The position numbers were made by a program, and so were the translations under genes. From Candidatus Levybacteria bacterium RIFCSPLOWO2_12_FULL_41_12 (GTDB lineage Bacteria > Patescibacteriota > Microgenomatia > Levybacterales > UBA12049): DNA of 64,000 bases. Under the pieces are notes generated by a model. That model worked only from the letters and a program-made list of their open reading frames with translations, searched no databases and was not told the DNA's origin. The stretch is taken from assembly GCA_001784155.1 (NCBI GenBank), contig MFPL01000007.1, positions 10,101 through 74,100 of the forward strand. Direction: 5' to 3'. This document shows, one piece after another, positions 37,901 through 59,227 of this stretch; position 1 is the stretch's first letter, and each line of letters begins with the position of its first letter.

Positions 37901-38271
37901 GACCATTCCAGACGCCTGCGCTAGCTCTTATATCTTCAGACAACAAACCGACAATAAATGATAACAAAATCTCGGTAACGCAAATAAACCCAACAAAATA
38001 TGAAGTAAGAGTAAATGCAAATAGTCCTTATATTCTTGTACTTAATAACAAATTTAACTCTAATTGGAAAACTTCGGATAAAGATGTGAATACCAAGCAT
38101 TTTATGGTAAATGGTTTTGCTAATGCTTGGAATATTTCCAAAACGGGCGAATACACGTTAATTGTCGAATATAGCTCGCAGAAGTATTTTTATTTCGGTT
38201 GGTTCATAACGATAGCATTTATGATAACAATGTTTACTTATCTAATCTATGCAATTTATAAACATAAATAG
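34897..38271 (+). CDS. Very large (1124 aa) polytopic membrane protein, GT-C/AftD-like, with a ~650 aa extracytoplasmic domain and a C-terminal TM anchor
   Basis: About 450 aa of TM helices at the N-terminus (GHDMGFP loop). Long hydrophilic region. Final helix FGWFITIAFMITMFTYLIYAIY. Paralogous N-terminal region to 38586..40505. Confidence 0.5.
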   Translation: MNFLRKHWEILIILFLGLTPLLWYKDPNSLALGHDMGFPIDPISFFKDRTFLWTDRVGLGWDQTLGSAAILIHGFEAAVASLGVPIFLVQKVVFIFWFVLPGLAMYYFVSTIHREKDQWFIRLAGSLFYMFNHFLLQAWFIAERTKISLFIALPILLALTISMIEGRISKIKGLALMSLVFFFFNGGGGLPLYGGLLLTLFTAFAFFGLIHLRRNPKTGVKRLTGIALGILASFILANFYWVLPLLVSVLSSYGQSLSSIGGISGVIAWSFEISKFASILNVMRLQGIPDWYDNPSHPFSGLFLNNPFLILVSFLIPVVVFSSLFLIKKIPEYRRHIIFFNILAVLGIIFTAGSHPPFGAIYNLFLTFIPGFAIFRTPFYKFAPAVWFAYAYLFAFSFYYLTQNFKRIRSALRFLVLPLILIYSFPFFTGSFFNWKEPFSTMTNLPSYVLDFSEYANSNFSFNDRVLTFPNQNLGWNSAIYKWGYWSTAPIESLLTNKSIVSNDRVMTDPEKKLTELIYDSILNRTDEWKKSVNILGINYFLLHNDFYYDAPKFETEDPRVYRERFLELGFEKKEVFGEWELYKIPGLSLKSKLYIDNDAIGIYNNENVLENQYFGIENVLDLPLDDDPFVINSPDTSDNLKTTIFLENCLFCDKEQKETPIFLPRTRILPGSILYPLVKRKENSQRNKLTKNINSKLDFHLGTTLKRLAEIKHLIDLGADENKTNGAVNELKKELILLQDSVNKMDKSRGDMRLLVLRIDNFLREENRILADISNDANASTGDKLIDVRSFISLATQENRKYESLYPENTEKRYHFTIDKKGGYEILVRKDEFKPDLVVEKAVVDNKGLPLKTFNKNSHYYSFGVNVFSKGFHEISLFLKNPDNLLSKGNDDDLNFDVNPLQPDCRVFRIEPLSSRIYILNFDYLTERSVGADNGPFVKIEQVLQDDVRDEDFQLKANSIFQTFDYKIATEKNVQLVKVSICASSGYENSSNIHIENLSLRPFQTPALALISSDNKPTINDNKISVTQINPTKYEVRVNANSPYILVLNNKFNSNWKTSDKDVNTKHFMVNGFANAWNISKTGEYTLIVEYSSQKYFYFGWFITIAFMITMFTYLIYAIYKHK

Positions 38272-38599
38272 GATAAAAGAATACTTTTATAAAAGACAAA
38301 ATAGAATTTTGGTAATTCTATCATTAAGCGTGCTATTTTTAGTAGTTAAGGAAATACCATTCTTAAATATTTTTTTTCCCGATAACGCTGCTTTTGGAGT
38401 TGCGCTCATTTCCATTTTAATTTTATTTAAACTTTATAAAAATACAATCTTCATCATTTTTTTAGCATTTTTCAGCTTTATTCTATATATAACAGAAGTA
38501 GTTAACCATGCAGATCAGCTAGCAGTTCTAATATTAGTATGTTTAACGGTGTATATGCTAGAAGAGGCTACAGTTTTTTTAAGAAATGAAATTTCCTAG
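38249..38599 (+). CDS. Small hydrophobic membrane protein (3-4 TM)
   Basis: 116 aa, mostly hydrophobic helices. Overlaps its neighbours by about 20 nt on each side. Could be a real small subunit or a spurious ORF. Confidence 0.35.
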   Translation: MQFININRIKEYFYKRQNRILVILSLSVLFLVVKEIPFLNIFFPDNAAFGVALISILILFKLYKNTIFIIFLAFFSFILYITEVVNHADQLAVLILVCLTVYMLEEATVFLRNEIS

Positions 38600-41662: not shown

Positions 41663-42187
41663 ATGAAAATCGGGATTGATATAAGCCAGCTGGCTTTTGA
41701 AAGAACTGGTGTTGCAAACTATCTGAAGAAGTTAGTAGAAAGTCTGGCTTTGGTTGATAAGAAAAATGACTACATTCTCTTTTACTCTTCCCTGAGAAGG
41801 CCTGTGCCTGTGCTAGATATAAAAAACCCCAACTTTAAAATAAAAGCTTTTAAATTCCCTCCGACTTTTCTTGAGAGACTCTGGAATAAGTTCCACCTTT
41901 TTCCGATCGAAAACTTCATAGGAGACGTGGATGTTTTTATCACTTCAGATTGGGTAGAACCGCCTGCCAAGAATGCTAAAAAAGTAACAATACTCTATGA
42001 CTTAATTGCGTATAAATATCCCGCAGAGACTCATCCAAGAATTGTCGAGGTTCAAAAAAGAAAAATAAGCTGGGCAAAAAACGAAACCGATAAATTTTTT
42101 GCAATATCGCAGTCAGCAAAAAGTGATGCCATCGATATTTTGGGAATAGATAAATCAAAAATCGAAGTAATATACCCTGGAATTTAA
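41663..42187 (+). pseudogene. GT4 glycosyltransferase N-terminal-domain fragment (174 aa, ends at the inter-domain YPGI)
   Basis: MKIGIDISQLAFERTGVANYLKKL resembles the N-termini of the full GT4s at 53231 and 42621. The ORF stops exactly at the YPG hinge where the C-terminal Rossmann domain should begin. The next gene is a four-helix-bundle protein. Confidence 0.5.
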
Positions 42188-42220
42188 TTAGTATTCAGTA
42201 CCAGGTATTAAGTAGTAAGT

Positions 42221-42595
42221 ATGGAGGACAGTAAAATTAGAACATTTAAGGATTTGATTACCTGGCAGGAGGCACACAAACTCGCTTTACTTGTTTATTC
42301 AATGACAAATAACTTTCCAAGAAGCGAAGCCTACTCTCTTGTTGACCAGATGAGAAGGTGCGTAATTTCTATTTCAAGTAATATTGCAGAAGGATTTTCT
42401 AGAAATTCCCAAAAAGAGAAAAGACAGTTTTATTATATGGCACTTGGCTCATTGACTGAGCTTCAAAACCAATTACTTCTCTCAAAAGACTTAAAATATC
42501 TTAACAAAGAAAAGTTCTCAGAGATTGATGAACAAACAACTACAGTTCATAAATTAATTAATGGACTTATAAAAAGTTCGAAAAATTATACTTAA
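42221..42595 (+). CDS. Four-helix-bundle protein ('23S rRNA intervening-sequence protein' family)
   Basis: TWQEAHKLALLVY..T..FP..E.YSLVDQMRR...SI.SNIAEGFSR.S.KE...FY..ALGS..EL..QL. Confidence 0.8.
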   Translation: MEDSKIRTFKDLITWQEAHKLALLVYSMTNNFPRSEAYSLVDQMRRCVISISSNIAEGFSRNSQKEKRQFYYMALGSLTELQNQLLLSKDLKYLNKEKFSEIDEQTTTVHKLINGLIKSSKNYT

Positions 42596-42620
42596 TACAT
42601 AATTCTTTATACATAATACT

Positions 42621-43745
42621 ATGGTAATTGGAATAAATGGATACGAAGCAGTAGTTCCGCGTTTCGGCTACGATAAAGAGGGATTACCCAGTAGGGTGGG
42701 AAGCGGCGAGTTTTCATTCAGGCTGATTTCGGAATTTTCAAAAGATACAAATAACAAATATATAATTTATCTTCCCAAGGCTCCAACCTCAGATATGCCT
42801 CAAGAGACCGAAAATTTCAGATATTCTGTTTTTACGACAAAGAAATTGTGGACAATGACAGGTCTTTCCAAAAGGCTTTATGCTGATAAAGAAAAGATTG
42901 ATGTTTTTCTCTCTCCTACACATTATCTTCCACTATTCGTTCCCTGCCCTTCCGTCGTTTCAATTCTTGACGTATCTTATCTTCATTTTCCAAAACTTTT
43001 TAAAAAGAAAGATCTCTACCAGCTGAAAATTTGGGGAGGGTACTCCATAAGAAAATCAAGCGCTGTTATTACCATAAGTGAGTCATCGAGGAGTGATATA
43101 ATCAGAGCATATGGTCTAAGTCCGAACAAGGTAACAGTGGCTTACCCCGGTTTAGTTGAGAGAGAAAAAGAAGATAAACCTATGGATGAATTAGATAAAA
43201 AATACGGAGTTAAGGGAAAATATATTCTTTTTGTTGGGACTCTTCAGCCCAGGAAGAATATAAAAAGGCTAATCGAGGCATTCTCAAAGCTTAAAGATAA
43301 AGACGTTGACTTAGTTGTCGTAGGTAAAAAGGGATGGATGTATGATGAAATAATAAATTCCCCCTCTGAGTTTGGAGTTGGGAATAGAGTGAAATTCTTA
43401 GACTCGGTAGAAGATGAAGACTTGTCCACATTCTACAAAAACGCAATCTTCTTCATTTTGCCCAGTCTTTATGAAGGATTTGGCTTGCCTGTTCTTGAAG
43501 CTATGGAATATGGGTGTCCTGTTATCACTAGTAATGTTTCAAGCCTGCCCGAGGCAGGGGGAGACGCAGTTTTATATGTGAATCCCGAAGACGTCAAGGA
43601 TATTACGGAAAAAATGCAAAAGCTCCTGCAAGATGATAGTCTTAGGAAGGAGCTTGTGGCCAAAGGGCGTGAACAGGTGAAAAAGTTTTCCTGGAAGAAA
43701 ACGGCAGAGCAGACTATTAAGGTGCTTGAAGGATTAAATAAATGA
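42621..43745 (+). CDS. GT4 (GT-B) glycosyltransferase
   Basis: C-terminal EGFGLPVLEAMEYGCPVITSNVSSLPE. KVTVAYPG hinge. 374 aa. Confidence 0.8.
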   Translation: MVIGINGYEAVVPRFGYDKEGLPSRVGSGEFSFRLISEFSKDTNNKYIIYLPKAPTSDMPQETENFRYSVFTTKKLWTMTGLSKRLYADKEKIDVFLSPTHYLPLFVPCPSVVSILDVSYLHFPKLFKKKDLYQLKIWGGYSIRKSSAVITISESSRSDIIRAYGLSPNKVTVAYPGLVEREKEDKPMDELDKKYGVKGKYILFVGTLQPRKNIKRLIEAFSKLKDKDVDLVVVGKKGWMYDEIINSPSEFGVGNRVKFLDSVEDEDLSTFYKNAIFFILPSLYEGFGLPVLEAMEYGCPVITSNVSSLPEAGGDAVLYVNPEDVKDITEKMQKLLQDDSLRKELVAKGREQVKKFSWKKTAEQTIKVLEGLNK

Positions 43746-45213: not shown

Positions 45214-48200
45214 ATGAAGAAAATAGTTTCCTGGATTTCAGACAATGTACTTTTTGTAGAAACAATATTTCTTCTGGCATTTATTCCCCTTTACCCAAAG
45301 CTTCCCTTACTGGATATTAAGAATACCTGGGTGTATATACGAGCGGAAGACTTTGTGGTTCTTTTTGTCTTACTTTCAATGCTAATCCTTCTTTTCAAAA
45401 GAAGGATTAGCCTCCGTACCCCATTAACGATCCCCATACTTGTTTTTTGGATTATTGGTGCAATTGCCACAATTCATGGTGTACTTCTTATTTTCCCCAA
45501 AATTGCAAATGTATTTCCCAATGTAGCTTTCCTAAGTTTAATGCGCCATATAGAGTACATGAGCCTTTTCTTTATTGCTTATCTTGGAATGAAGGATCCG
45601 AGAAGGCTGACTATTGTTATAGGGACTTTGGTTACGACACTTTCTGGAGTCGTTCTTTATGGGTTTGGCCAAAAGTATTTAGGTTTTCCTGCCTACCTGA
45701 CAATGAACGAAGAGTTTGCAAAAGGAGCCCCTATCACTCTCTCCGGACTCTCAAGGGTTCCGTCCACTTTTGCAGGACATTATGATCTGGCAGCATACCT
45801 AGTTCTTATAATCCCAATTCTTATTAGTTTAATTTTCGGATTTAAAAGTTGGTTAATAAGAGCAGCGTTAGCAACAGTTTCTCTATTAGGAATAGTTCTT
45901 CTTTTTATGACAGTTTCAAGAGTTTCTTTTTTTGTACTTTTTGTTTCGCTTCTTGTGGTTATATTTTTTCAAAAGAAAAAAGTAATACTTTTCTCAATCC
46001 CTGCAGCTATCTTATTAGGTTTTCTTTTTATAACATTTCAACCAACCCTACTTGATCGATTCAAAGGGACAGTGTCTGAAGTTGATGTTTTGGTTGACGC
46101 AAATACCGGAGAATCTGTGGGTCATGTAAGGTTTGTTTCTCAAGATTATTTTAAAGACAAAATAGTTTTGAGAAGAATAGTCAGGGATAAAGCAGATTTA
46201 GCGTATGCAATAATGGGTAAGGAGACAAGCGTTAAGGATCCTACAGAATCTGCGATTTATCCTTCCAGTCTTATTCCGGACAATTCGCCGCTTGTAACTG
46301 CAGTGAATGTTTCTAACGGTGAAAATCTTCCCCAGGGTACGGGATATATCAATTTGCCTCTTTCCCCTGTTGTGCAAAGACTCCCCAGCTTTTTCTATGA
46401 ACTTCCTCCTAATGTTAATGTGGAGTCCACTATTTCTGCTCAAATTCTCGTGATACAGGGAGACTTTATAGTTAAAAAAGCGTCTGCATACGATCTTTCC
46501 TTTACAACTAGATTTCAGGGAGAATGGCCTAGGGCGATAGAGGCATTCGAGCGAAACATTTTAGTGGGAAGCGGTTATGGATCTGTAAGTCTGGCTGTAG
46601 ATAATAATTATTTGCGTATATTAGGAGAAATTGGAATTCTGGGATTTACTTCATTTTTGGTTATATTTCTCTCTTTGGGAATTTATATAAAAAGATTTTA
46701 CCGTGATCTGGAGTCAAGCGTCTCAAAGAGTTTTGTATTGGGCTTCTCTGCAGGTTTAATCGGGCTTTCTCTCAACGCCCTGCTTATCGATGTTTTCGAG
46801 GCATCGAAGATCGCGTTTCTCCTATGGACTCTTGTAGGAATTACTTTGGCTATTTTGGTTTCGGGAGCAAAAAAAGAGCTTAATCTTTTTAGCGAGTTAA
46901 AAAAGGCAGCGACTTCAACATATGCCGTTTTCGTTTATCTATTCCTGCTTTCTATCGTGCTTTTCTCACCAATTATGGAAAATTATTTCGTAGGGGACGA
47001 CTTTACTTGGCTTAGATGGGCGGCAGACTGTAGGGATAAGTGTTCTTCATTTTCCTCAGTAATAAAATACTTTACAGAGTCTGATGGTTTTTTCTATAGG
47101 CCTGGAACTAAAATCTTCTTTGACTTTATGTATTCCACCTTCTGGCTAAATCAGAACGTGTATCACTTGGTATCAATACTGCTTCATTTTGCTGTAGCCT
47201 CGCTTTTCTATTTATTGGCTTTGAGAGTTTTAAGAAGAAAGATTTTGGCAGCATCTTCGGCTTTTCTTTTTCTCGTAATGGCGGGTCCTGCAGAGGCGGT
47301 TTTTTGGATTTCATCAGTCGGACATCTTTTTAATGCATTACTGGGACTATTAGGACTTATGTTATTTATATTGTGGGAAGAGAAGAGGAAGGCTTATTAC
47401 TATATCGGCGCGTTTGTTTCTTTTGCCCTAGCTCTTTTATTTCATGAACTTGGTATTGTATTTCCGCTTTTAGTTCTGGCGTATAAAATGAAGGATGGCT
47501 TTTTATCGGGAATTAGGCAAATGCTTGCAAGGCTCGACTTTTTGACTCTTTTCATACCTGGTATCGCTTATCTTTTCCTTCGCTATGCTTCCCACAGCCA
47601 TTGGTTTAGCGGGGACTATAGTTACGATATCCTAAAGCTTCCGTTTAATTTTTTCGGAAATATTCTGGGATACTTATCTCTTATAATCTTGGGACCAATT
47701 TCTCTCCCTTTTTACGAAACTTTAAGAAGCCTAGCAAGGGGACACATGATCCTGGGTATTGTTGCTATTTCTTTTTCTGCAATACTTCTTTACCTTGTCT
47801 ACCGTTTTGTTTATAAGAAGTTAAGTTCAGACGATAAAAGGGTTGTTTTATTTGGTATCGCGTTTTTCACCATAGCTTTACTACCGTTCCTAGGGCTTGG
47901 AAATATTACCTCAAGATACAGCTACCTTGCTTCCGTAGGTCCGATTTTAATACTGGTTATGCTTGCCCGGAAGTCATATGAGTATCTAAAGGCAAGCGGC
48001 AGGGAGATAGCTATTGGAGCATCCACTCTCATATTTTTGGTTTTTGCATTGTTTCATATAATTCAGGTCCAGCAAGCTTACTTTGATTGGCACGAAGCGG
48101 GAAAATACAGCAAGAACTTTTTCGTGTCCATTGATGCCTTGTATGATGATGAATGGTCAAAAGACGTAAGGTTCCACTTCGTAAATGTTCCCATAAGGCA

Positions 48201-48402
48201 TGGACAAGCATGGATTTTTCCGGTTGGGCTTTCGGACGCAGTTTGGTTTGCGTTCAAAAATGACGATACTAGAGTGTTCATTCACAATAGCCTGGAGGAG
48301 CTTGATTTGCCAAGTTATACAATAAACGATATAGTTCTGAGGTTTAATCCGGACGGAAGCGTTGAGCAGATTCACTTTATAAAGCCTCTCGTCGAGAATT
48401 GA
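45214..48402 (+). CDS. 1062-aa polytopic membrane fusion: O-antigen-ligase/polymerase-like N-terminal half plus GT-C (PMT/ArnT-like, DD-motif) C-terminal half
   Basis: N-half: 10+ helices with a ~200 aa external loop, as in Wzy_C/O-antigen-ligase proteins. C-half begins FVGDDFTWLRW (cf. TDDYAFLYY in 13382..15979) followed by more helices. Confidence 0.45.
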   Translation: MKKIVSWISDNVLFVETIFLLAFIPLYPKLPLLDIKNTWVYIRAEDFVVLFVLLSMLILLFKRRISLRTPLTIPILVFWIIGAIATIHGVLLIFPKIANVFPNVAFLSLMRHIEYMSLFFIAYLGMKDPRRLTIVIGTLVTTLSGVVLYGFGQKYLGFPAYLTMNEEFAKGAPITLSGLSRVPSTFAGHYDLAAYLVLIIPILISLIFGFKSWLIRAALATVSLLGIVLLFMTVSRVSFFVLFVSLLVVIFFQKKKVILFSIPAAILLGFLFITFQPTLLDRFKGTVSEVDVLVDANTGESVGHVRFVSQDYFKDKIVLRRIVRDKADLAYAIMGKETSVKDPTESAIYPSSLIPDNSPLVTAVNVSNGENLPQGTGYINLPLSPVVQRLPSFFYELPPNVNVESTISAQILVIQGDFIVKKASAYDLSFTTRFQGEWPRAIEAFERNILVGSGYGSVSLAVDNNYLRILGEIGILGFTSFLVIFLSLGIYIKRFYRDLESSVSKSFVLGFSAGLIGLSLNALLIDVFEASKIAFLLWTLVGITLAILVSGAKKELNLFSELKKAATSTYAVFVYLFLLSIVLFSPIMENYFVGDDFTWLRWAADCRDKCSSFSSVIKYFTESDGFFYRPGTKIFFDFMYSTFWLNQNVYHLVSILLHFAVASLFYLLALRVLRRKILAASSAFLFLVMAGPAEAVFWISSVGHLFNALLGLLGLMLFILWEEKRKAYYYIGAFVSFALALLFHELGIVFPLLVLAYKMKDGFLSGIRQMLARLDFLTLFIPGIAYLFLRYASHSHWFSGDYSYDILKLPFNFFGNILGYLSLIILGPISLPFYETLRSLARGHMILGIVAISFSAILLYLVYRFVYKKLSSDDKRVVLFGIAFFTIALLPFLGLGNITSRYSYLASVGPILILVMLARKSYEYLKASGREIAIGASTLIFLVFALFHIIQVQQAYFDWHEAGKYSKNFFVSIDALYDDEWSKDVRFHFVNVPIRHGQAWIFPVGLSDAVWFAFKNDDTRVFIHNSLEELDLPSYTINDIVLRFNPDGSVEQIHFIKPLVEN

Positions 48403-49874: not shown

Positions 49875-51040
49875 AAATACTTTTGATTTCATCTTTTCTT
49901 CCCTACCCTCTCCTATCGGGAGGAAATATCAGGCTTTACAACATACTAAAATATCTTCAAAAAAATCATGAGGTAGTCCTGGTGTGTGAGAAGAGGTCAT
50001 ATCAGAAAGAAGCAGACATAAAAAGGGTGGAAGAAGTATGCAGTAGAGTAATAACCGTTCCGCGTAAGAAACAGTGGTCTGTATCAAATATTCTTAAGAC
50101 CGCTTTTTCAAAGAGCCCGTTTCTCCTAGTGGGTCATGAAAGTAGCGAAATTAAAAAAATAGTCTCAAAGCTTTTGGAAGAAGAAAAGTTTGATCTTATA
50201 CACGTTGAGACTTTCTACGTGATGCACAATTTGCCTAAAACTAATCTGCCCGTTGTTCTAGTTGAGCATAACATTGAATATTTGATTTACGAAAGGTTTG
50301 CCCGGAATGCATTTCCCATACTTCGCCCGTTTTTAATGATAGATGTAGCAAAGCTTAAAAGGGAAGAAGAAAAGGCTTGGGATAGAGCATCGGCCTTGGT
50401 AGCAGTTTCTAAAAAAGAGAAAGAACTTATGGGAAGAGATAATGTCGAAGTAGTTCCTAACGGTGCAGATGTAGATAAATTCAAGCTTAAAAATTATAAA
50501 AAAGGGTTAAATAAAAAGATTCTTTTTATTGGGGATTTTAAGTATATCCAAAATCAGGATTCAGCAAGGTGGATAATAAGAAATATATGGCCACTCATCT
50601 CTGCCAATAATAAAAACGTTACTCTTTGGATCGTAGGAAAAAACGCAGTAGACAGAGTAGGCAGCTACAAAAGAGAAGGTATTGTTTTGGAAGATAACCC
50701 TACCTCTAAAACTGAAGACATCTTTCAGCAAGCAGACATTCTACTCGCTCCTATAAGAGTTGGTGGAGGTACGAGTCTTAAGATACTTGAGGCAATGGCA
50801 TCAGGCCTCCCCGTGGTTACAACATTACTTGGTAATGAAGGAATAGGGGCAAAAGACAGCGAAGAAATTATAGTTGCAGAAGAGCCTTGGGAATTCTCAA
50901 ATAAAATTACTGATATTCTTTGGAATGAGGGAAGAATAAAGGAGATTGGTAAAAATGCGCGAGTCTTTATTGAAAAAAATTATAAATGGGAGAAGATAAC
51001 GGAAAAGCTGAATGATGTGTATGAAAGAGTGGTTAAATGA
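49871..51040 (+). CDS. GT4 (GT-B) glycosyltransferase
   Basis: MKILLISSFLPYPLLSGGNIRLYNILKYL N-terminus. C-terminal GGGTSLKILEAMASGLPVVTT. Confidence 0.8.
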   Translation: MKILLISSFLPYPLLSGGNIRLYNILKYLQKNHEVVLVCEKRSYQKEADIKRVEEVCSRVITVPRKKQWSVSNILKTAFSKSPFLLVGHESSEIKKIVSKLLEEEKFDLIHVETFYVMHNLPKTNLPVVLVEHNIEYLIYERFARNAFPILRPFLMIDVAKLKREEEKAWDRASALVAVSKKEKELMGRDNVEVVPNGADVDKFKLKNYKKGLNKKILFIGDFKYIQNQDSARWIIRNIWPLISANNKNVTLWIVGKNAVDRVGSYKREGIVLEDNPTSKTEDIFQQADILLAPIRVGGGTSLKILEAMASGLPVVTTLLGNEGIGAKDSEEIIVAEEPWEFSNKITDILWNEGRIKEIGKNARVFIEKNYKWEKITEKLNDVYERVVK

Positions 51041-51948
51041 CAGAACTATCTATAATTATAGTTAACTATAATTCTTTGGACTTTATATCTCGGTGTATAG
51101 AATCGATTAAGGAGAATTCACTTAAGGAGTTAAAGAATGGAGAATACGAGATAATTGTTATCGATAATGCCTCAAGAGACGGAAGCCAAGAATTTTTAAA
51201 AAATCTGGATGGAATAATTTTTGTTCCAAACGAAAACAACTTAGGCTTTTCAAAGGCAAACAATATTGGAGTAAAAAAATCCAAAGGCCGATATGTTCTT
51301 TTTTTAAACCCGGACACCATAATTCATAGGAATACCCTTTCTAAGATGGTTGAGTTTATGAATCAAAATAAAGATGTGGGGGCAGCCACGTGTAAGGTTT
51401 TTATTTCTGAAAGCGAAATAGATGACGCATCTCATAGAGGGTTTCCTACGCCTTGGAATTCTTTGATGTATTTTTCAGGGATGTCTAAGCTTTTTCCCAA
51501 GTCTCGGATATTTAACGGTTACAATATGGGATGGATCGATTTAAACAAAACGCACGAAATAGATGCGCTTGCAGGAGCATTTATGATGGTAAGACGTGTT
51601 GCGGGTGAGGACGTAGGCTGGTGGGATGAGGACTATTTTTTCTATGGGGAAGATCTCGATTTCTGCTATATGCTTAAAAAAAAGAGATGGAAGGTTTATT
51701 TTGTCGCAGAGGTATCAGCCTTTCATTATAAAGGAGTTTCCGGAGGAATAAAAAAGACATCCGAGGGAATTACTACCGCAGATCTTGAGACAAAGATTCT
51801 TGCCACCAATTCTCGTTTCCAAGCAATGAAAATTTTCTATGATAAACATTATTCATCAAAATACCCCTTCTTCGTAACAGAACTCGTTAAACTGGCAATT
51901 ACACTAAAGCTATGGAGAAGTCTTCGAAAACTCAAAAAATCCTCTTAA
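51037..51948 (+). CDS. GT2 (GT-A) glycosyltransferase
   Basis: LSIIIVNYNSLDFISRCIESI...IVIDNASRDGS...FLNPDT. Confidence 0.8.
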   Translation: MTELSIIIVNYNSLDFISRCIESIKENSLKELKNGEYEIIVIDNASRDGSQEFLKNLDGIIFVPNENNLGFSKANNIGVKKSKGRYVLFLNPDTIIHRNTLSKMVEFMNQNKDVGAATCKVFISESEIDDASHRGFPTPWNSLMYFSGMSKLFPKSRIFNGYNMGWIDLNKTHEIDALAGAFMMVRRVAGEDVGWWDEDYFFYGEDLDFCYMLKKKRWKVYFVAEVSAFHYKGVSGGIKKTSEGITTADLETKILATNSRFQAMKIFYDKHYSSKYPFFVTELVKLAITLKLWRSLRKLKKSS

Positions 51949-51969
51949 GACAGAAGAATTAAATTCGGA

Positions 51970-51997
51970 TTGACAATCCAAGAAAAAGTGATATTAT
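51970..51997 (+). promoter_or_regulatory. Sigma70-like promoter (TTGACA-16 nt-TATTAT) ending 10 nt before the ATG of the anomalous ORF (leaderless-type)
   Basis: ttgacaatccaagaaaaagtgatattat. No SD between the -10 element and ATG 52008. Confidence 0.45.
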
Positions 51998-52007
51998 TAC
52001 GTTTATT

Positions 52008-53054
52008 ATGGCAGGAGAACGACTAGCAGGAGGTTCCGCAGGAGTAGATGCAAGAGCAGCACAAGGCCCAATTCCTCCAGATTTTGAACAAGCAATAGTA
52101 AAAGTAGATACAGTTCTTGACTTAGTTCAAACACATGTTGTAGGTAAATTTCCAAACGCTACAGTTGACGGTATTGGTTTCGTAGATCCAGATGGGAGTC
52201 TCTGGCATTTATCTCTTCTTCAAAGAAATGCGGCAGGAAGAGTAAGTCTTTTTAACCTGCAAAACCCTAACGAAAGCGATCTGTATGAATCATTTACAAT
52301 AGGGGGTAGGATGTCAGCAAGACCTAGCGCAGTTTCTATGATTACGACAGACCATATTAATCCGCGAAGAGAAAGATGGGACAAGGAAACAGAGTTAGAA
52401 GTTGCTACATTGGCAGAGGCTAGGCTTAGAAGCTTACTAGGTATTCCTCAACCAAAAACAGAAAGACAACTTATTGAGGAAACACTTGAGCATGTCGCAA
52501 TTCATAATATTATAGATCAAGTTGAGCAGCCTCAAACATTCGAACAAGTGTATGCTGACTTAGAAAGTTATTTTTGGCAACAATTGCAACCCCCTACAAA
52601 CAAGTTAGTTGATTATACGCTGGACGAGGGTGCTGAGCTTGACTTGATTTATGATTCTTTTGATTCTGATATATTGAAGCTATTAGAAGGAGAAGATATC
52701 CATATGCCTAGTCCTGAATCTGGAGTTTCGATTCCGGTTCCGGAGCCGGATACTGCATTTATTAGGCTTTCAGATGATGCTCAAGGAAGGGTAATTAGAC
52801 TTGGTTTTACTTTTAAAGGTGAGTCAGAAGGCCAACCTTCTGAAAACTTTGGAATTGAAATAAATTTAGCAGAAGCACATGGAACTGTTGACATTTACGA
52901 ATCGCGTACGTCTCCCGATGGGACGCCTCAAGGAGCAGAAGAAAGAGTGAAGACAGAAAAAGCACAGCCAACCCCAGATCAAATGCGAAATATAGCACGA
53001 ATTCTTGATAAATATTCACACTCTGGCGCGATAACTTATCGGGCTACAAGGTGA
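52008..53054 (+). CDS. Hypothetical acidic, Lys-poor soluble protein of atypical composition (no recognisable domain)
   Basis: 348-aa ORF of higher GC and G/C-rich codon choice. About 3 % Lys versus about 10 % in its neighbours. Asp/Glu-rich. No TM or signal peptide. Has its own promoter and is followed by a 176-bp spacer. Confidence 0.55.
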   Translation: MAGERLAGGSAGVDARAAQGPIPPDFEQAIVKVDTVLDLVQTHVVGKFPNATVDGIGFVDPDGSLWHLSLLQRNAAGRVSLFNLQNPNESDLYESFTIGGRMSARPSAVSMITTDHINPRRERWDKETELEVATLAEARLRSLLGIPQPKTERQLIEETLEHVAIHNIIDQVEQPQTFEQVYADLESYFWQQLQPPTNKLVDYTLDEGAELDLIYDSFDSDILKLLEGEDIHMPSPESGVSIPVPEPDTAFIRLSDDAQGRVIRLGFTFKGESEGQPSENFGIEINLAEAHGTVDIYESRTSPDGTPQGAEERVKTEKAQPTPDQMRNIARILDKYSHSGAITYRATR

Positions 53055-53132
53055 GCTCCCGTTGCTGCATAACGACATCTAGAATTCACTTCAGTAATTA
53101 ATCCCATATTCACCTCAAGAGTAAACTACTCT

Positions 53133-53161
53133 TTGACTACATTCTATAAAAAGTCTATATT
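53133..53161 (+). promoter_or_regulatory. Sigma70-like promoter (TTGACT-17 nt-TATATT) upstream of the GT4 gene at 53231
   Basis: ttgactacattctataaaaagtctatatt. A second TATAAT sits about 9 nt before the ATG (gatataattagcctATG). Confidence 0.4.
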
Positions 53162-53230
53162 TTCCCGTTTGGGTCCTTTGACAAACTAAGAACTATAGCA
53201 CCCCCCGCATCTATCGGATATAATTAGCCT

Positions 53231-54340
53231 ATGTTAATAGGTATTGATGTAAGGCTTTGGTCACAGACCGGAGTAGGAAGATACATAAGAAATCTTGTTT
53301 TAAATTTAGAGACTCTTGATCAGAGGAATAAATACATTCTGTTTGCGATAGAAGAAGATGTAGAAGGTATCAGGAAGGCTCTAGGAAATGACAACTTTAA
53401 AATCGTACCGACTGACGTAAGATGGCATACGCTTTCGGAACAAACTAAATTTAGGAGAATTATTAATAGAGAAAACTTAGATTTAGTGCACTTTCCCTAT
53501 TTTTCCCTTCCTGTTTTTTACCAAGGGTCGTATGTCCTGACTGTCCATGATTTAATCTTAAACCATTTTCCTACAGGTAAGGCTTCCACCAAAAATTTAC
53601 TTTACTATAATTTGAAAAGACGTGCATATCTTTTTGTTATAAAAAGGGCCGCCAGAAATGCGAAGAAGATTATTGCAGTTTCAGCTGCAACCAAGCATGA
53701 GATCGTAGATCATCTCGGCGTAGATGGAAATAAGGTTTCAGTAATTTATGAAGGAGTAGAAGGCTTTGTTATTTCGAAAGAAAATGCGTCAAAGCCTAAA
53801 GATCCCTACGTTTTATATGTGGGAAATGTTTATCCTCACAAAAATAGCGAGAGAATGATTCTAGCGTTTTTAAAAGCAGATAAGCCTCGGGATGCCAAGT
53901 TAATTTTCGTTGGAAAGGAGGATTTTTTCTACGATAATCTAAAACGTAAGGTAGGAAAGCTAGATACAAAAGGTTCTATTAAATTTTACGGCTACGTTGA
54001 TGACGTAAGGCTTGCCTCGCTTTATAAAAACGCAAGCGCTTTGATAACACCATCCCTAATGGAAGGATTTGGGCTGCCTGTTCTTGAGGCAATGGTTAAC
54101 GGCTGTTTGGTGCTCTGCTCAAGCATTCCGTCTTTGCGTGAAATCGCAGGAGCCTCGGCAATCTATTTTGATCCAATGGACATACATGATATGTCTCGGA
54201 AAATTGAATTTGCACTTTCTGGTTCAAATAAAGAAGCGTACGTAAATAAAGGATTAGTAAGATCAAAGAATTTCTCATGGAAAAAAATGGCGAAAGAAAC
54301 ACTTAAAGTTTATGACTCTTCGACAAGCCCAGAGTCATAG
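53231..54340 (+). CDS. GT4 (GT-B) glycosyltransferase
   Basis: MLIGIDVRLWSQTGVGRYIRNL. EGFGLPVLEAMVNGCLVLCSSIPSLREIAG. Confidence 0.8.
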   Translation: MLIGIDVRLWSQTGVGRYIRNLVLNLETLDQRNKYILFAIEEDVEGIRKALGNDNFKIVPTDVRWHTLSEQTKFRRIINRENLDLVHFPYFSLPVFYQGSYVLTVHDLILNHFPTGKASTKNLLYYNLKRRAYLFVIKRAARNAKKIIAVSAATKHEIVDHLGVDGNKVSVIYEGVEGFVISKENASKPKDPYVLYVGNVYPHKNSERMILAFLKADKPRDAKLIFVGKEDFFYDNLKRKVGKLDTKGSIKFYGYVDDVRLASLYKNASALITPSLMEGFGLPVLEAMVNGCLVLCSSIPSLREIAGASAIYFDPMDIHDMSRKIEFALSGSNKEAYVNKGLVRSKNFSWKKMAKETLKVYDSSTSPES

Positions 54341-54356
54341 TGAGTTTATCGAATCT

Positions 54357-55445
54357 ATGAAGGTGGCTTTAGTTTATGATCGTGTTAACAAATGGGGAGG
54401 CGCAGAAAGAGTTCTCTTGGCGCTTCATAAAATGTTCCCCAGGGCTCCGCTTTTTACCTCTGTTTATAACGAGGAAACCGCAGGGTGGGCCGGGATTTTT
54501 GATATAAAAACCTCTTTTCTTCAGTCCTTTCCCCTAGCGCGCAGAAAGCATGAATTATACGCTACTTTTATGCCCCTGGCTTTTGAGTCTTTAAGCTTTG
54601 ATGGATACGATTTGGTAATTTCGCTTTCAAGCGAAGCATCCAAGGGAATAATTACAAAGCCTGGGACTTGCCATATATGCTACTGTCTCACCCCGACTAG
54701 ATATCTTTGGAGCGGATACGGAGACTATTTTAAAAACCCGCTCCTTAGGTTTCTCTCCAAGCCAGCAGTTTCTTACTTAAAGAGCTGGGATTTAGTGGCC
54801 TCTCAAAGGCCTGACTACTACGCCTCAATTTCAAAAGAAGTTGCAGGTAGGGTTAGGAAATATTATGGCAGAGACTCCATTATTATTTATCCGCCTGTTG
54901 CAGGTATTGGAAGAAATGTAAATTCAAAAAAGGAAGATTTCTATCTCCTAGTAAGCAGACCCGTTCCCTATAAGAGAATAGATATTGCTATTGAGGTATT
55001 TAAGAATAATGGGAAAAAATTAAAAATAGTTGGAGCAGGTTTGGGCGAGCGGTTTTTAAAAGGGTCGTTACCAAACAATATAGAAGTTTTAGGAGATGTT
55101 TCAGATGAAGCGCTTTTTGATCTGTATCAACGGGCAAATGCTTTAATTTTTCCCGGAAGGGAAGATTTTGGATTAGTTATGGCAGAGGCCCAGTCTTTTG
55201 GCACTCCGGTAGTGGCTTTTGGAGGAGGGGGTGCGCTTGAGATCATTGAGGAGGGAAGAACTGGAGAGTTTTTTAACAAACACGACAGCTCATCGCTTCA
55301 GGCTACGTTGGAAATGTTTGACAAGAAAAGCTATAATTCAGAATATATAAAGGAAAGAGCTTTAAGGTTTGGTCCCCAAAGGTTTGAGAAAGAGTTCTTA
55401 AATTTTGTGGAAAATAGTTTGAGTGCGTATTCAGAAAAAATATGA
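54357..55445 (+). CDS. GT4 (GT-B) glycosyltransferase
   Basis: MKVALVYDRVNKWGGAERVLLAL N-terminus. Start taken at the internal ATG; the track ORF extends 45 nt further, into the upstream gene. C-terminal GREDFGLVMAEAQSFGTPVVAFGGGGALEII. Confidence 0.75.
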   Translation: MKVALVYDRVNKWGGAERVLLALHKMFPRAPLFTSVYNEETAGWAGIFDIKTSFLQSFPLARRKHELYATFMPLAFESLSFDGYDLVISLSSEASKGIITKPGTCHICYCLTPTRYLWSGYGDYFKNPLLRFLSKPAVSYLKSWDLVASQRPDYYASISKEVAGRVRKYYGRDSIIIYPPVAGIGRNVNSKKEDFYLLVSRPVPYKRIDIAIEVFKNNGKKLKIVGAGLGERFLKGSLPNNIEVLGDVSDEALFDLYQRANALIFPGREDFGLVMAEAQSFGTPVVAFGGGGALEIIEEGRTGEFFNKHDSSSLQATLEMFDKKSYNSEYIKERALRFGPQRFEKEFLNFVENSLSAYSEKI

Positions 55446-57217: not shown

Positions 57218-57247
57218 TTGACACAGCTTTGATTTACCTAGTATCAT
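57218..57247 (+). promoter_or_regulatory. Sigma70-like promoter (TTGACA-18 nt-TATCAT) directly abutting the start codon of the next gene
   Basis: ttgacacagctttgatttacctagtatcat, then atattgATGGATGG. ATG at 57254 is 7 nt after the -10 element, so the transcript is leaderless or near-leaderless. Confidence 0.4.
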
Positions 57248-57250
57248 ATA

Positions 57251-59227
57251 TTGATGGATGGATTTCAAAAAATTGAACTCACTTCGCCTAAGAAGGAAGA
57301 CTCGTTGTCCCCTGAAGATTCAAGCGTAGTTACAAACCCAAACAAGAAAAGCAGGCTTCACTTTTTGAGAGGCAAAAGGTTTAGGATTGGGCTCGTGGTC
57401 TTCATTCTCATATTTTTGATAGGAATTATCCTTCCAGGATTTTTGGCCTACGCCTCTGCTAAAAAGACCTATGCTCAGCTCAACGCTACACTCTATGCTC
57501 TAAAACAGCAAAACATTGAATTGGCATCTACGGAAATGGATAAGACCAGGGAAAGCCTTAAAGACACGCAAAGAAAAGTAAATTTTTTAGTTGTTTTGCG
57601 AGTTATCCCATTTGTTAGCAATTATTATGGTGATGCTCGTCATGCGCTCGTTGCGGGAGAGCATTTTGTAGAAGCCGGAGATATTTTAATTGAATCTATT
57701 AAGCCTTACGCCGATGTCCTGGGTCTTAAAGGTCAGGGAAGTTTTGTAGGAGGGTCTGCCGAACTTCGAATAGAAACAGCTGTAAAAACTATGGATAAGG
57801 TAACACCTAAAATCGATGAGATTGCGGAAGAATTGACTCTTGCAAAAGCGGAAATGGATTACATAGACCCTGATGACTACCCCTCATTTTTGGCTGGGGG
57901 AAAAGTTAAAAAGCAGCTTGCTCAAATGATAAAGCTGACAGATAACGGAGTAACTTTAGTCAATGACGCAAAGCCCCTGATTAAGGTTTTGCCAAGTCTT
58001 CTGGGAGAGCCTGATGAGAAAAAATACCTTATTATTTTCCAAAACGACAAAGAGCTTCGACCTACAGGAGGATTTCTTACGGCATATTCAATTTTTACAC
58101 TTGAGCACGGCCTAATTCATGTTAGCGGCTCAAACAATATTTACACACTTGATGCAACGGTAAGAGAAAAAAAACCTGCTCCTGAGCCTCTGAAGAGCCT
58201 ACTCAAGCAACCCGTTTTAAACATAAGAGACAGTAATCTTTCTCCAGATTTTGTCAAGTCTATGGAAGTTTTTTCAGAAATGTATGAGAATTCCTCAAGC
58301 TTTCAAGAAGTTGACGGAATAATAGCAGTCGATACGCACGCTTTAATAGCAGCAATAAATATTCTAGGAGACATTGAGGTCGATGGAACCCGTTTTACTG
58401 CTAAAACCGATCCAAGATGCGATTGTCCTCAGGCGATTTACCAATTAGAAGCTATCTCAAGCACTCCTATTCAGGCAGATTTTAGGTACGTTGATGTTAA
58501 TGCTGTTAACGCAGCAAGAAAAAATATAATAGGAGACTTGATGTATGCTATTTTAAACAAGGCTTTCTCCTCGTCCCCTAAGATTTACTGGGGTCCTCTT
58601 TTTCAGGAAATGCTGTCCCAGGTAAATGAAAAACACATAATGTTTTATCTTTACAATAAAGAGGCTCAGAAGGGAATCGATACGGTCAACGCCTCTGGTA
58701 GAATTAAGAATTTTGATGGAGACTACCTCCACATAAATGAGGCAAATTTCGGAGGGGCCAAATCAAATCTTTTCGTAACGCAAAAAGTTGAGCAGGAATA
58801 TGCTATCAAAAAAGACAAAACCATAGAAAAAACTCTGACCATAACTTATAAAAATCCTTTCCCTCAATCAGACTGTAATTTGGAAAGAGGAGGGCTTTGT
58901 CTCAACGCACCCCTTAAGGATTGGTACCGCATCTATGTGCCGGAAGGCTCAAGACTCGTTTCGGTTACCGGTTCACAATCCAAAGAAGATCCTTATAAAG
59001 AATTGGGCAAAACCGTTTTTGAAGGATTTTTGGAGATAAGGCCTCAGGGGGCTCGAGTTCTTAAGGTTAAATACGCTCTTCCGTTCAAGGCAGATAAAAA
59101 AAATCCAATCAGGCTTATGATCCAAAAGCAGCCGGGAACCGATGGGGATGAGCACACGATACTACTCAACGGTAGGGAAGTCGAAAAGTTTATTTTGAAA
59201 AGCGACAAAACAATAAGCGTTGAATAG
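57251..59227 (+). CDS. N-terminally membrane-anchored extracytoplasmic hypothetical protein (possibly DUF4012-like, polysaccharide-associated)
   Basis: Single TM (IGLVVFILIFLIGIILPGFLAYA) then about 590 hydrophilic aa. Likely real start is ATG 57254 (MDGFQK). Family assignment is from memory only. Confidence 0.4.
   Translation: MMDGFQKIELTSPKKEDSLSPEDSSVVTNPNKKSRLHFLRGKRFRIGLVVFILIFLIGIILPGFLAYASAKKTYAQLNATLYALKQQNIELASTEMDKTRESLKDTQRKVNFLVVLRVIPFVSNYYGDARHALVAGEHFVEAGDILIESIKPYADVLGLKGQGSFVGGSAELRIETAVKTMDKVTPKIDEIAEELTLAKAEMDYIDPDDYPSFLAGGKVKKQLAQMIKLTDNGVTLVNDAKPLIKVLPSLLGEPDEKKYLIIFQNDKELRPTGGFLTAYSIFTLEHGLIHVSGSNNIYTLDATVREKKPAPEPLKSLLKQPVLNIRDSNLSPDFVKSMEVFSEMYENSSSFQEVDGIIAVDTHALIAAINILGDIEVDGTRFTAKTDPRCDCPQAIYQLEAISSTPIQADFRYVDVNAVNAARKNIIGDLMYAILNKAFSSSPKIYWGPLFQEMLSQVNEKHIMFYLYNKEAQKGIDTVNASGRIKNFDGDYLHINEANFGGAKSNLFVTQKVEQEYAIKKDKTIEKTLTITYKNPFPQSDCNLERGGLCLNAPLKDWYRIYVPEGSRLVSVTGSQSKEDPYKELGKTVFEGFLEIRPQGARVLKVKYALPFKADKKNPIRLMIQKQPGTDGDEHTILLNGREVEKFILKSDKTISVE

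Follow-up and report, generated by a model that had tools for sequence, protein, structure and literature searches.

The stretch of DNA analysed here, which we call the window, comprises 64,000 nucleotides of contig MFPL01000007.1 (positions 10,101 to 74,100) from Candidatus Levybacteria bacterium RIFCSPLOWO2_12_FULL_41_12. The element under study is a forward-strand open reading frame (ORF, 52008..53054) that encodes an acidic (pI 4.6), Lys-poor, soluble protein of 348 aa and lies between two glycosyltransferase genes of a cell-envelope glycan cluster. Upstream of it is a GT2 glycosyltransferase gene (51037..51948, forward strand; Pfam Glycos_transf_2, E 1.4e-30), the last gene of a big1062-PMT_2-GT4-GT2 block, and downstream, after a 176-bp spacer (53055..53230), is a GT4 glycosyltransferase gene assigned by Pfam (53231..54340, forward strand), the first gene of a GT4-GT4-NTP_transferase-Bac_transf-DUF4012 block. 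The ORF carries a promoter of its own on the same strand, with a -35 box TTGACA (51970..51975), a 16-nt spacer and a TG-extended -10 element (TGaTATTAT, 51989..51997; TG at 51989-51990, TATTAT at 51992-51997) that ends 10 nt before the ATG. A preliminary description made from the letters alone had taken this segment for a compositionally foreign transcription unit, horizontally acquired or recently inserted; our data suggest a promoter-plus-gene accessory unit that was inserted at an operon boundary and is native to Levybacteria.

Gene-level statistics were calculated for all 58 ORFs of the window, and the ORF was compared with the other 57. Its protein contains 2.9% Lys against a window-ORF mean of 9.6% (z -2.6) and 16.4% Asp plus Glu against 11.1% (z +2.2), in agreement with the preliminary description; it also has the most negative net charge of all window ORFs (-26; pI 4.61), lacks Cys, is rich in Gln (2.6 times the window average) and Pro (1.6 times), and has an Arg content of 6.0%, which is not depleted. 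As had also been noted, neither a transmembrane segment nor a signal peptide was found in the product, whose hydropathy maximum (Kyte-Doolittle, 19 residues) is 0.88 and whose N-terminus is not signal-like. The supposedly raised GC content, with runs above 50%, fared less well, since the ORF, at a GC of 0.414, lies only 1.3 SD above the mean of 0.372, the genes at 54.3-62.3 kb have 0.40-0.44, and values of 0.5 or more occur in the ORF only at scales of 100 bp or less (maximum 0.51), as they do in 1.8% of the window's 100-mers. GC at third codon positions (GC3) is 0.241 (z -2.5), so that the silent sites are more AT-rich than those of the neighbours, and the leave-one-out codon adaptation index (CAI) is above average (0.765, z +1.6). 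The excess GC sits at codon positions 1 (GC1 0.585) and 2 (GC2 0.415) and, combined with the low GC3, therefore reflects amino-acid content. The ORF is an amino-acid outlier and no codon-usage outlier, and the claim of foreign composition did not survive the GC3 and CAI check. A shift of GC1 and GC2 that is driven by amino acids can mimic foreign composition, and GC3 and CAI tell the two apart.

The product differs by a single residue (V31A) from OGH54180.1, a hypothetical protein of Candidatus Levybacteria bacterium RIFOXYC1_FULL_40_10. Sequence and profile searches with the product and every relative gave no matches in Pfam, NCBIfam, PHROGs, PADLOC or the PDB, and the Pfam/NCBIfam scan of the ORF returned, at E <= 0.01, only a DUF3376 match below threshold (17 bits against a cut-off of 25). 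The family is very small, with 9 clusters among 5.8 billion (5.8e9) proteins, and an exhaustive hmmsearch of 1.84 billion (1.84e9) proteins gave 9 representatives, one of which is spurious (an acidic repeat protein); the homology search that had been proposed thus found nine family hits and no known domain. No second copy of any part of 51949-53230 exists within the window. All named members belong to Candidatus Levybacteria, save one bin labelled Woesebacteria, and all have intact reading frames (166-412 aa). Across the family, pI is 4.2-5.1, Lys 1.5-6%, GC1 0.55-0.65 and GC3 0.24-0.35 on contigs of 36-43% GC, and being acidic and poor in Lys is a trait under selection throughout the family. 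The ORF is a genuine protein-coding gene, and the orphan family to which it belongs is very small and confined to Levybacteria. The ORF resembles other ORFans of the Candidate Phyla Radiation (CPR) in its annotation as a hypothetical protein, its lack of a known domain and its confinement to one candidate phylum, and differs from them in that the family has a conserved promoter, domain shuffling and multiple insertion contexts.

The promoter is as characteristic of the family as the protein. The TTGACA box is invariant in all members, with family homology starting 2-3 nt upstream of it, and both the TG and the TAnnnT of the -10 element are invariant in alignment A2; the preliminary description had given the TTGACA-16-TATTAT arrangement and its distance from the ATG exactly, and had not mentioned the TG extension. 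The 64 kb contain five promoter matches of at least 11/12, where Markov simulations gave 2.45 +/- 1.5, and a match with a TG extension occurs once, in front of this ORF, against 0.15 expected by chance. The block shared before the ATG reads g(g/a)TTGACA, N3-CA-N5-AA-N, TG-N-TA-N3-T, followed by 9-10 nt, and is present in 20/20 core family members with a readable 5' end. Mean pairwise identity in the family is 71% at positions -40..-1 and 29% at -72..-41, compared with 51% over nt 1-60 of the coding sequence and 68% in the conserved C-terminal domain (C-domain). Nowhere else in the window does the module pattern recur (100 shuffles predict 0 occurrences), and of the 102 loci fetched, the 19 that hold a family gene have a single copy each and the 83 others have none. 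A scan of viral contigs for the module gave 12 chance matches with unrelated or absent ORFs behind them. Gene and promoter, the latter by sequence strong and of the sigma-70 type, form a self-contained unit whose limits are the stop codon and a point about 2 nt before the -35 box, and the earlier proposal of a stand-alone transcription unit is supported by the recurrence of this module in 20 core members and at least eight neighbourhoods.

The position of the -10 element predicts a 5' untranslated region of about 2-5 nt, that is, a (nearly) leaderless transcript, and no Shine-Dalgarno (SD) motif lies within 20 nt of the ATG at 52008. The preliminary description was right about the missing SD motif and the closeness of the -10 box; neither is distinctive, as 57/58 window ORFs are without an SD motif within 20 nt of the start, and a -10 box of at least 5/6 matches ends 3-13 nt before the start in 10 of the 20 genes that have an upstream gap of at least 20 nt (random positions, 6.6%). 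Judging by these window genes, this Levybacterium seems as a rule to initiate translation without a leader or nearly so, and we found nothing specific in the literature on SD-less or leaderless initiation in CPR bacteria. Operon-first genes of the whole window show two preferred spacings between -10 box and start, of about 6 and about 11 nt. The leaderless genes of Actinobacteria, Deinococcus and archaea lack an SD motif and have their -10 box just a few nt ahead of the start codon. The ORF is similar in that its -10 box ends 10 nt before the ATG without an SD, and differs in that a 10-nt gap predicts a leader of 2-5 nt and not a start at the A of the ATG; to judge from spacing, the strict case is better fitted by the GT4 and DUF4012 genes, with 6 nt. 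At the latter (57218-57256), a TTGACA-18-TATCAT promoter (11/12; TATCAT at 57242-57247) ends 6 nt before the ATG at 57254. The DUF4012 gene probably starts there (657 aa, as annotated in locus L003) and not at the TTG at 57251, and would then have a strict leaderless architecture like that of the GT4 gene. For the ORF itself, promoter quality, spacing and CAI point to strong, nearly leaderless expression.

The position of the unit in the glycan cluster was studied in a synteny set obtained by scanning with the downstream GT4 gene, one genome per species, which gave 80 loci from Levybacteria, Gottesmanbacteria and other Microgenomates. The gene order big1062-PMT_2-GT4-GT2-GT4-GT4-NTP_transferase-Bac_transf-DUF4012 is colinear in nearly all of them, with GT2 orthologs (40-73% identity) directly before the GT4 ortholog in most relatives. 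None of the 80 loci has a relative of the ORF within 10 kb, and in 48 of 68 informative loci the GT4 start follows the upstream gene within 128 bp, which supports the insertion proposed in the preliminary description by the very presence/absence check that it had suggested. In about 18 loci the same GT2/GT4 junction holds 0.3-5.9 kb of other, unrelated genes, including DoxX-like and VKOR-like membrane proteins, SET-like, GNAT-like, acyltransferase-3-like and coiled-coil proteins, a PIN/HTH pair and others (names read from the translations and not based on hidden Markov models); the 5.9-kb insert, in L031, contains Pro/Thr-rich membrane proteins. The GT2/GT4 boundary is a recurrent insertion slot across Levybacteria (loci L008-L087). 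Within the species population the ORF occupies the same slot in 24/24 contigs read, i.e. it is fixed.

The junction itself offers few traces of how the insert arrived. Family homology ends at the stop codon, and the spacer that follows (53055-53230), correctly delimited in the preliminary description, has no Rfam match, no forward-strand terminator and a fold z-score of 0.03 against shuffled sequences. A TTGACT-17-TATATT element (53133..53161, forward strand; 10/12) does exist there, as had been described. It may be a secondary promoter and is not the conserved one; it would leave the GT4 gene with a 69-nt SD-less leader and has no equivalent in relatives. Nor would the GT4 promoter be fresh, as had been supposed, since a TATAAT box (53219..53224, forward strand) ends 6 nt before the GT4 ATG at 53231 and TATAAT or TATACT stands exactly 6 nt before the ATG in many GT4 orthologs, with or without an insert; the leaderless-type promoter of the GT4 operon is therefore ancestral. 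Insertions are tolerated at this junction because it is a native operon boundary at which the GT4 gene has its own promoter. The window contains no tRNAs; no mobility genes accompany the unit, whose neighbours are glycosyltransferase genes, and flanking direct or inverted repeats are limited to short chance ones; target-site duplications and terminal inverted repeats at the insertion were rejected, the repeats being short and at chance level. Within the flanking operons, the two downstream GT4 genes (53231..54340 and 54312..55445) overlap by 29 nt (54312-54340), as they do similarly in several relatives; their translation may be tightly coupled, or the second gene may start further downstream. 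The gene at 45214-48402 encodes a strongly hydrophobic multi-transmembrane protein of 1062 aa with no Pfam domain, which heads the PMT_2-GT4-GT2 block in nearly all 80 loci, including Gottesmanbacteria (30-63% identity), and is an uncharacterised core component of the glycan cluster.

Elsewhere, the family gene was found in at least eight unrelated neighbourhoods. Besides the GT2/GT4 junction of the window, it lies after a Wzy_C gene and convergent with a Glucodextran_B-like gene (L001/L088/L092 group), after a Lon-like gene (L097, an 8.7-kb contig), between NYN and Fic/Doc genes (two of each), before HicB-HicA, beside a KAP NTPase gene, after a PaaX-like gene and, in the most divergent member (P0014), between GDH and DUF4342 genes. 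P0014 keeps the TTGACA box, with a leader of about 40 nt. Glycan genes are thus found in two of at least eight contexts. ATP synthase subunit a seems to be joined to the family gene in P0009, where, at 838-1252 of L089 (ERZ27254836 k141_2141530), the gene is in frame with the C-terminal part of the subunit. This fusion was rejected as a chimeric assembly. The end of the L089 contig is unrelated GC-rich sequence, and the fusion is probably an assembly chimera, L097 having the gene complete (194 aa); a real rearrangement at L089 is conceivable, as in L001 some 2 kb separate the family gene from the ATP synthase operon.

The protein is a mosaic. Residues 1-28 (52008..52091, MAGER...PPDFEQ) form a Gly/Ala/Pro-rich N-terminal leader, and the promoter together with codons 1-28 is 84% identical in nucleotides to the 194-aa member of the L089/L097 type, whose gene runs from the leader straight into the C-domain. 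An in-frame block of 456 nt (52092..52547, residues 29-180, delimited by the BLAST segment offset) is not in the L097-type gene and is bounded by the 9-nt repeats TTTGAACAA (52083-52091) and TTCGAACAA (52539-52547). Much of this block belongs to a module X (residues 27-145) that has its homolog in the extension at the C-terminus of P0012 (E 2e-7), and the order is X-C in the ORF and C-X in P0012. A search for further homologs of module X gave no matches, and the query's own protein was likewise not recovered by it. For P0012 (L115, 894-1967), the start given in the database precedes the true ATG (937) and overlaps with the promoter module. Other members have different tails, P0005 and P0011 carrying a Cys-rich, zinc-ribbon-like CxxC...CxxxxC segment; across the family, the core domain is joined to different extra modules. 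An internal duplication of the halves of the protein was rejected (BLASTP E 0.28).

The C-domain (52515..53051, residues ~170-348) is the sole part common to the whole family (alignments A1, A3 and A4). Modelled alone with AlphaFold2, it reaches a mean predicted local distance difference test (pLDDT) score of 80.8 and a predicted template modelling score of 0.80, whereas the full-length product has a mean pLDDT of 56, with the N-terminal half below 50. The predicted alpha/beta fold begins with a helix, a strand and two helices, continues with an antiparallel meander of five strands and closes with a helix and a strand; for it, Foldseek found no significant neighbour (best E 0.04 in the PDB, with a template modelling score of ~0.23, and 0.014 among the BFVD viral models). 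The core alignment has 11 invariant columns, and the ratio of nonsynonymous to synonymous substitution rates (dN/dS) is 0.15-0.62, below 1 in 36/36 pairs across nine members, and therefore indicates a coding gene under moderate purifying selection. In its C-domain the ORF is nearest to P0002, P0003 and P0004 (66-73%), with lower values for the L097-type gene (54% for P0009, 60% for P0010) that shares its leader, and these differing affinities suggest recombination within the family.

Taken together, the data are best explained by a promoter-plus-gene accessory unit, native to Levybacteria and inserted at an operon boundary, a reading to which we assign a probability of about 0.7. The unit would have been placed at the GT2/GT4 boundary by recombination, without dedicated mobility machinery, and the insertion would be old or its donor would lie within Levybacteria; a recent arrival from a distant donor is not favoured, given silent sites of native composition and a gene that is fixed across the species population. 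The boundary between two operons would tolerate such an insert, the GT4 gene having its own leaderless-type promoter. Several points weigh against this reading or limit it. No mechanism of movement is visible in the form of repeats, an integrase or a tRNA, so that "cassette" describes the unit and does not denote a demonstrated mobile element; in some contexts the gene could conceivably have been inherited vertically while its flanks were rearranged; many of the contigs that carry family genes are short, at 1-5 kb; and start site, transcript and protein abundance of the ORF are all read from sequence. The functional guess that follows draws on charge, composition and accessory-island neighbourhoods, there being no match to any DNA-mimic, anti-restriction or defence family and Arg (6.0%) not being depleted, unlike in a pure polyanion.

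That guess, a tentative one, is that the product may be a soluble polyanion, made in abundance and acting alone, whose task is to bind or sequester a basic partner such as a protein of a conflict system or one that binds nucleic acids. This role is suggested by the acidic, Lys-poor composition, which the whole family has kept against the Lys-rich bias of the genome, and by the strong promoter, the lack of a conserved partner gene and the frequent toxin-antitoxin or defence-type neighbours. It is doubtful that one can go further and see in the unit a minimal promoter-plus-gene cassette that spreads among Levybacteria without mobility genes and encodes a novel-fold polyanionic mimic or decoy in inter-microbial or phage conflict; such a protein would, for instance, neutralise a DNA- or RNA-binding defence or toxin protein, with its Lys-poor acidic surface being decisive. 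Acidic DNA-mimic or anti-restriction proteins are known in Ocr and ArdA. The product shares with them a strong negative charge, solubility, a stand-alone nature, a location in accessory DNA and, by sequence, a strong promoter, and differs in having no sequence or structural similarity to them (Pfam, including the ArdA model; Foldseek), no Arg depletion, a larger size, two modules and no recognisable mobile element around it.

The same neighbourhoods, with HicBA, two Fic/Doc, two NYN and a KAP NTPase gene in several contexts, would also fit a narrower form of this guess, a single-gene conflict, defence or anti-defence factor of flexible islands, e.g. an immunity-like or decoy protein, and both the strong acidity of the protein and the location of the unit in a variable surface-glycan locus, likewise a typical flexible region, are compatible with this. 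We regard it as unlikely: PADLOC, Pfam and PHROGs gave no match for any member, and membership of a defence system was accordingly rejected; there is no conserved partner gene, the contigs are short, and such neighbours are common in CPR accessory regions generally.

A role dedicated to the glycan machinery, as chaperone, regulator or glycosylation substrate, was suggested by location, and two context groups do lie in or at the edge of PMT_2 or Wzy_C clusters (the window and L001/L088/L092). At least six other contexts have no glycan genes, however, the same cluster works without the gene in 80 relatives, and other, unrelated genes hold the same junction elsewhere. A periplasmic or extracellular glycosylation substrate would be hard to reconcile with a protein that has neither signal peptide nor transmembrane segment, and glycosyltransferase genes are so abundant in this genome that chance adjacency is likely. 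We therefore consider such a factor very improbable and the product unlikely to be a component of the glycosylation machinery; the chaperone-like role named in the preliminary description falls with it, and the anti-sigma or regulatory role found no profile support, as neither an anti-sigma, HTH nor other regulatory domain was detected in the product with Pfam or NCBIfam.

That the gene is a recent, unameliorated arrival from a distant donor or a phage could be argued from its amino-acid make-up, from its outlying GC1 and GC2 and from its absence from the same slot in 80 related loci, and the high GC1 and GC2, together with little Lys and much Arg, Ala and Pro, could be the fossil of an old origin at higher GC. 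Against this, GC3 lies below the window mean and CAI above it, the same pattern recurs in every family member on contigs of 36-43% GC, the family is confined to Levybacteria, the gene is fixed in the 24 population contigs read, and island hallmarks such as tRNAs and flanking repeats were not found. Of two observations named beforehand as speaking against acquisition, codon usage within the normal range was seen, and a conserved ortholog at this site in all relatives was not; as a compositional island, the segment shows presence/absence polymorphism without atypical composition, codon usage or mobility hallmarks. Relatives of the ORF are absent from 2.9 M viral contigs, PHROGs and BFVD gave no match, and the flanks are chromosomal glycan genes colinear in 80 relatives, so that a phage origin, which had also been proposed, was rejected. 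A recent or foreign origin is thus largely refuted, and we would give it little credence.

It is less credible still that the selected element is a mobile strong promoter whose read-through boosts the genes behind it, such as the GT4 operon, the ORF being carried along as a passenger. The promoter is conserved and, by its sequence, very strong, and no terminator or stable structure lies between the ORF and the GT4 gene. On the other side, the ORF is under purifying selection with a conserved domain that is predicted to fold well, the downstream gene is convergent in L001/L088, L096 and L101, the module was never found without the gene in 102 loci, and the GT4 gene has its own conserved promoter. 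A spurious or decaying ORF without function, for which the orphan status, very narrow distribution and dN/dS of up to 0.6 in the closest pairs might speak, is effectively refuted by the intact frames of 166-412 aa in all members, dN/dS below 1 in 36/36 pairs, the 11 invariant core columns, the confident C-domain model and the conserved promoter.

Phage morons, the self-contained promoter-gene-terminator units found between genes of lambdoid prophages, are among the closest known parallels to the accessory unit favoured here. The ORF likewise has its own promoter, stands between two genes that are adjacent in relatives, is dispensable to the flanking genes and is patchily distributed; it differs in having no terminator and a native codon usage, and in lying outside any phage or prophage, in the glycan cluster of a CPR chromosome. 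By the criteria tested, the ORF falls outside the DNA-mimic, moron, defence and anti-sigma families.

Other parts of the window deserve mention. At 41663-43745, a 174-aa ORF with only the N-terminal domain of a GT4 is followed by a 124-aa gene of the 23S_rRNA_IVP/bAvd-like type (42221-42595) and then by a full GT4 gene, and the four-helix-bundle gene in between looks like another small stand-alone insert in the glycan cluster that possibly splits or duplicates a GT4. A diversity-generating retroelement with the ORF as target was rejected, there being no repeat partner and the bAvd-like gene at 42221 being a 23S_rRNA_IVP-family protein. At 38249-38599, a 116-aa ORF without a Pfam match has the lowest GC in the window (26%; GC2 0.205) and overlaps the ends of both neighbours.

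The finding opens no long-standing question. Its uses lie in CPR genome annotation, through rules for promoters and leaderless starts, and in the study of how accessory genes spread without mobile-element machinery, and an orphan protein with a confident C-domain model and no fold relatives is a well-defined target for structural and functional work. The ORF is a moron-like, self-promoted accessory gene in a CPR chromosome. If our reading is correct, it would provide a clean sequence-level case, in an uncultivated CPR lineage, of a gene that moves with its own promoter, and the operon boundary at which it lies would be a recurrent landing pad within an otherwise rigid glycan cluster.

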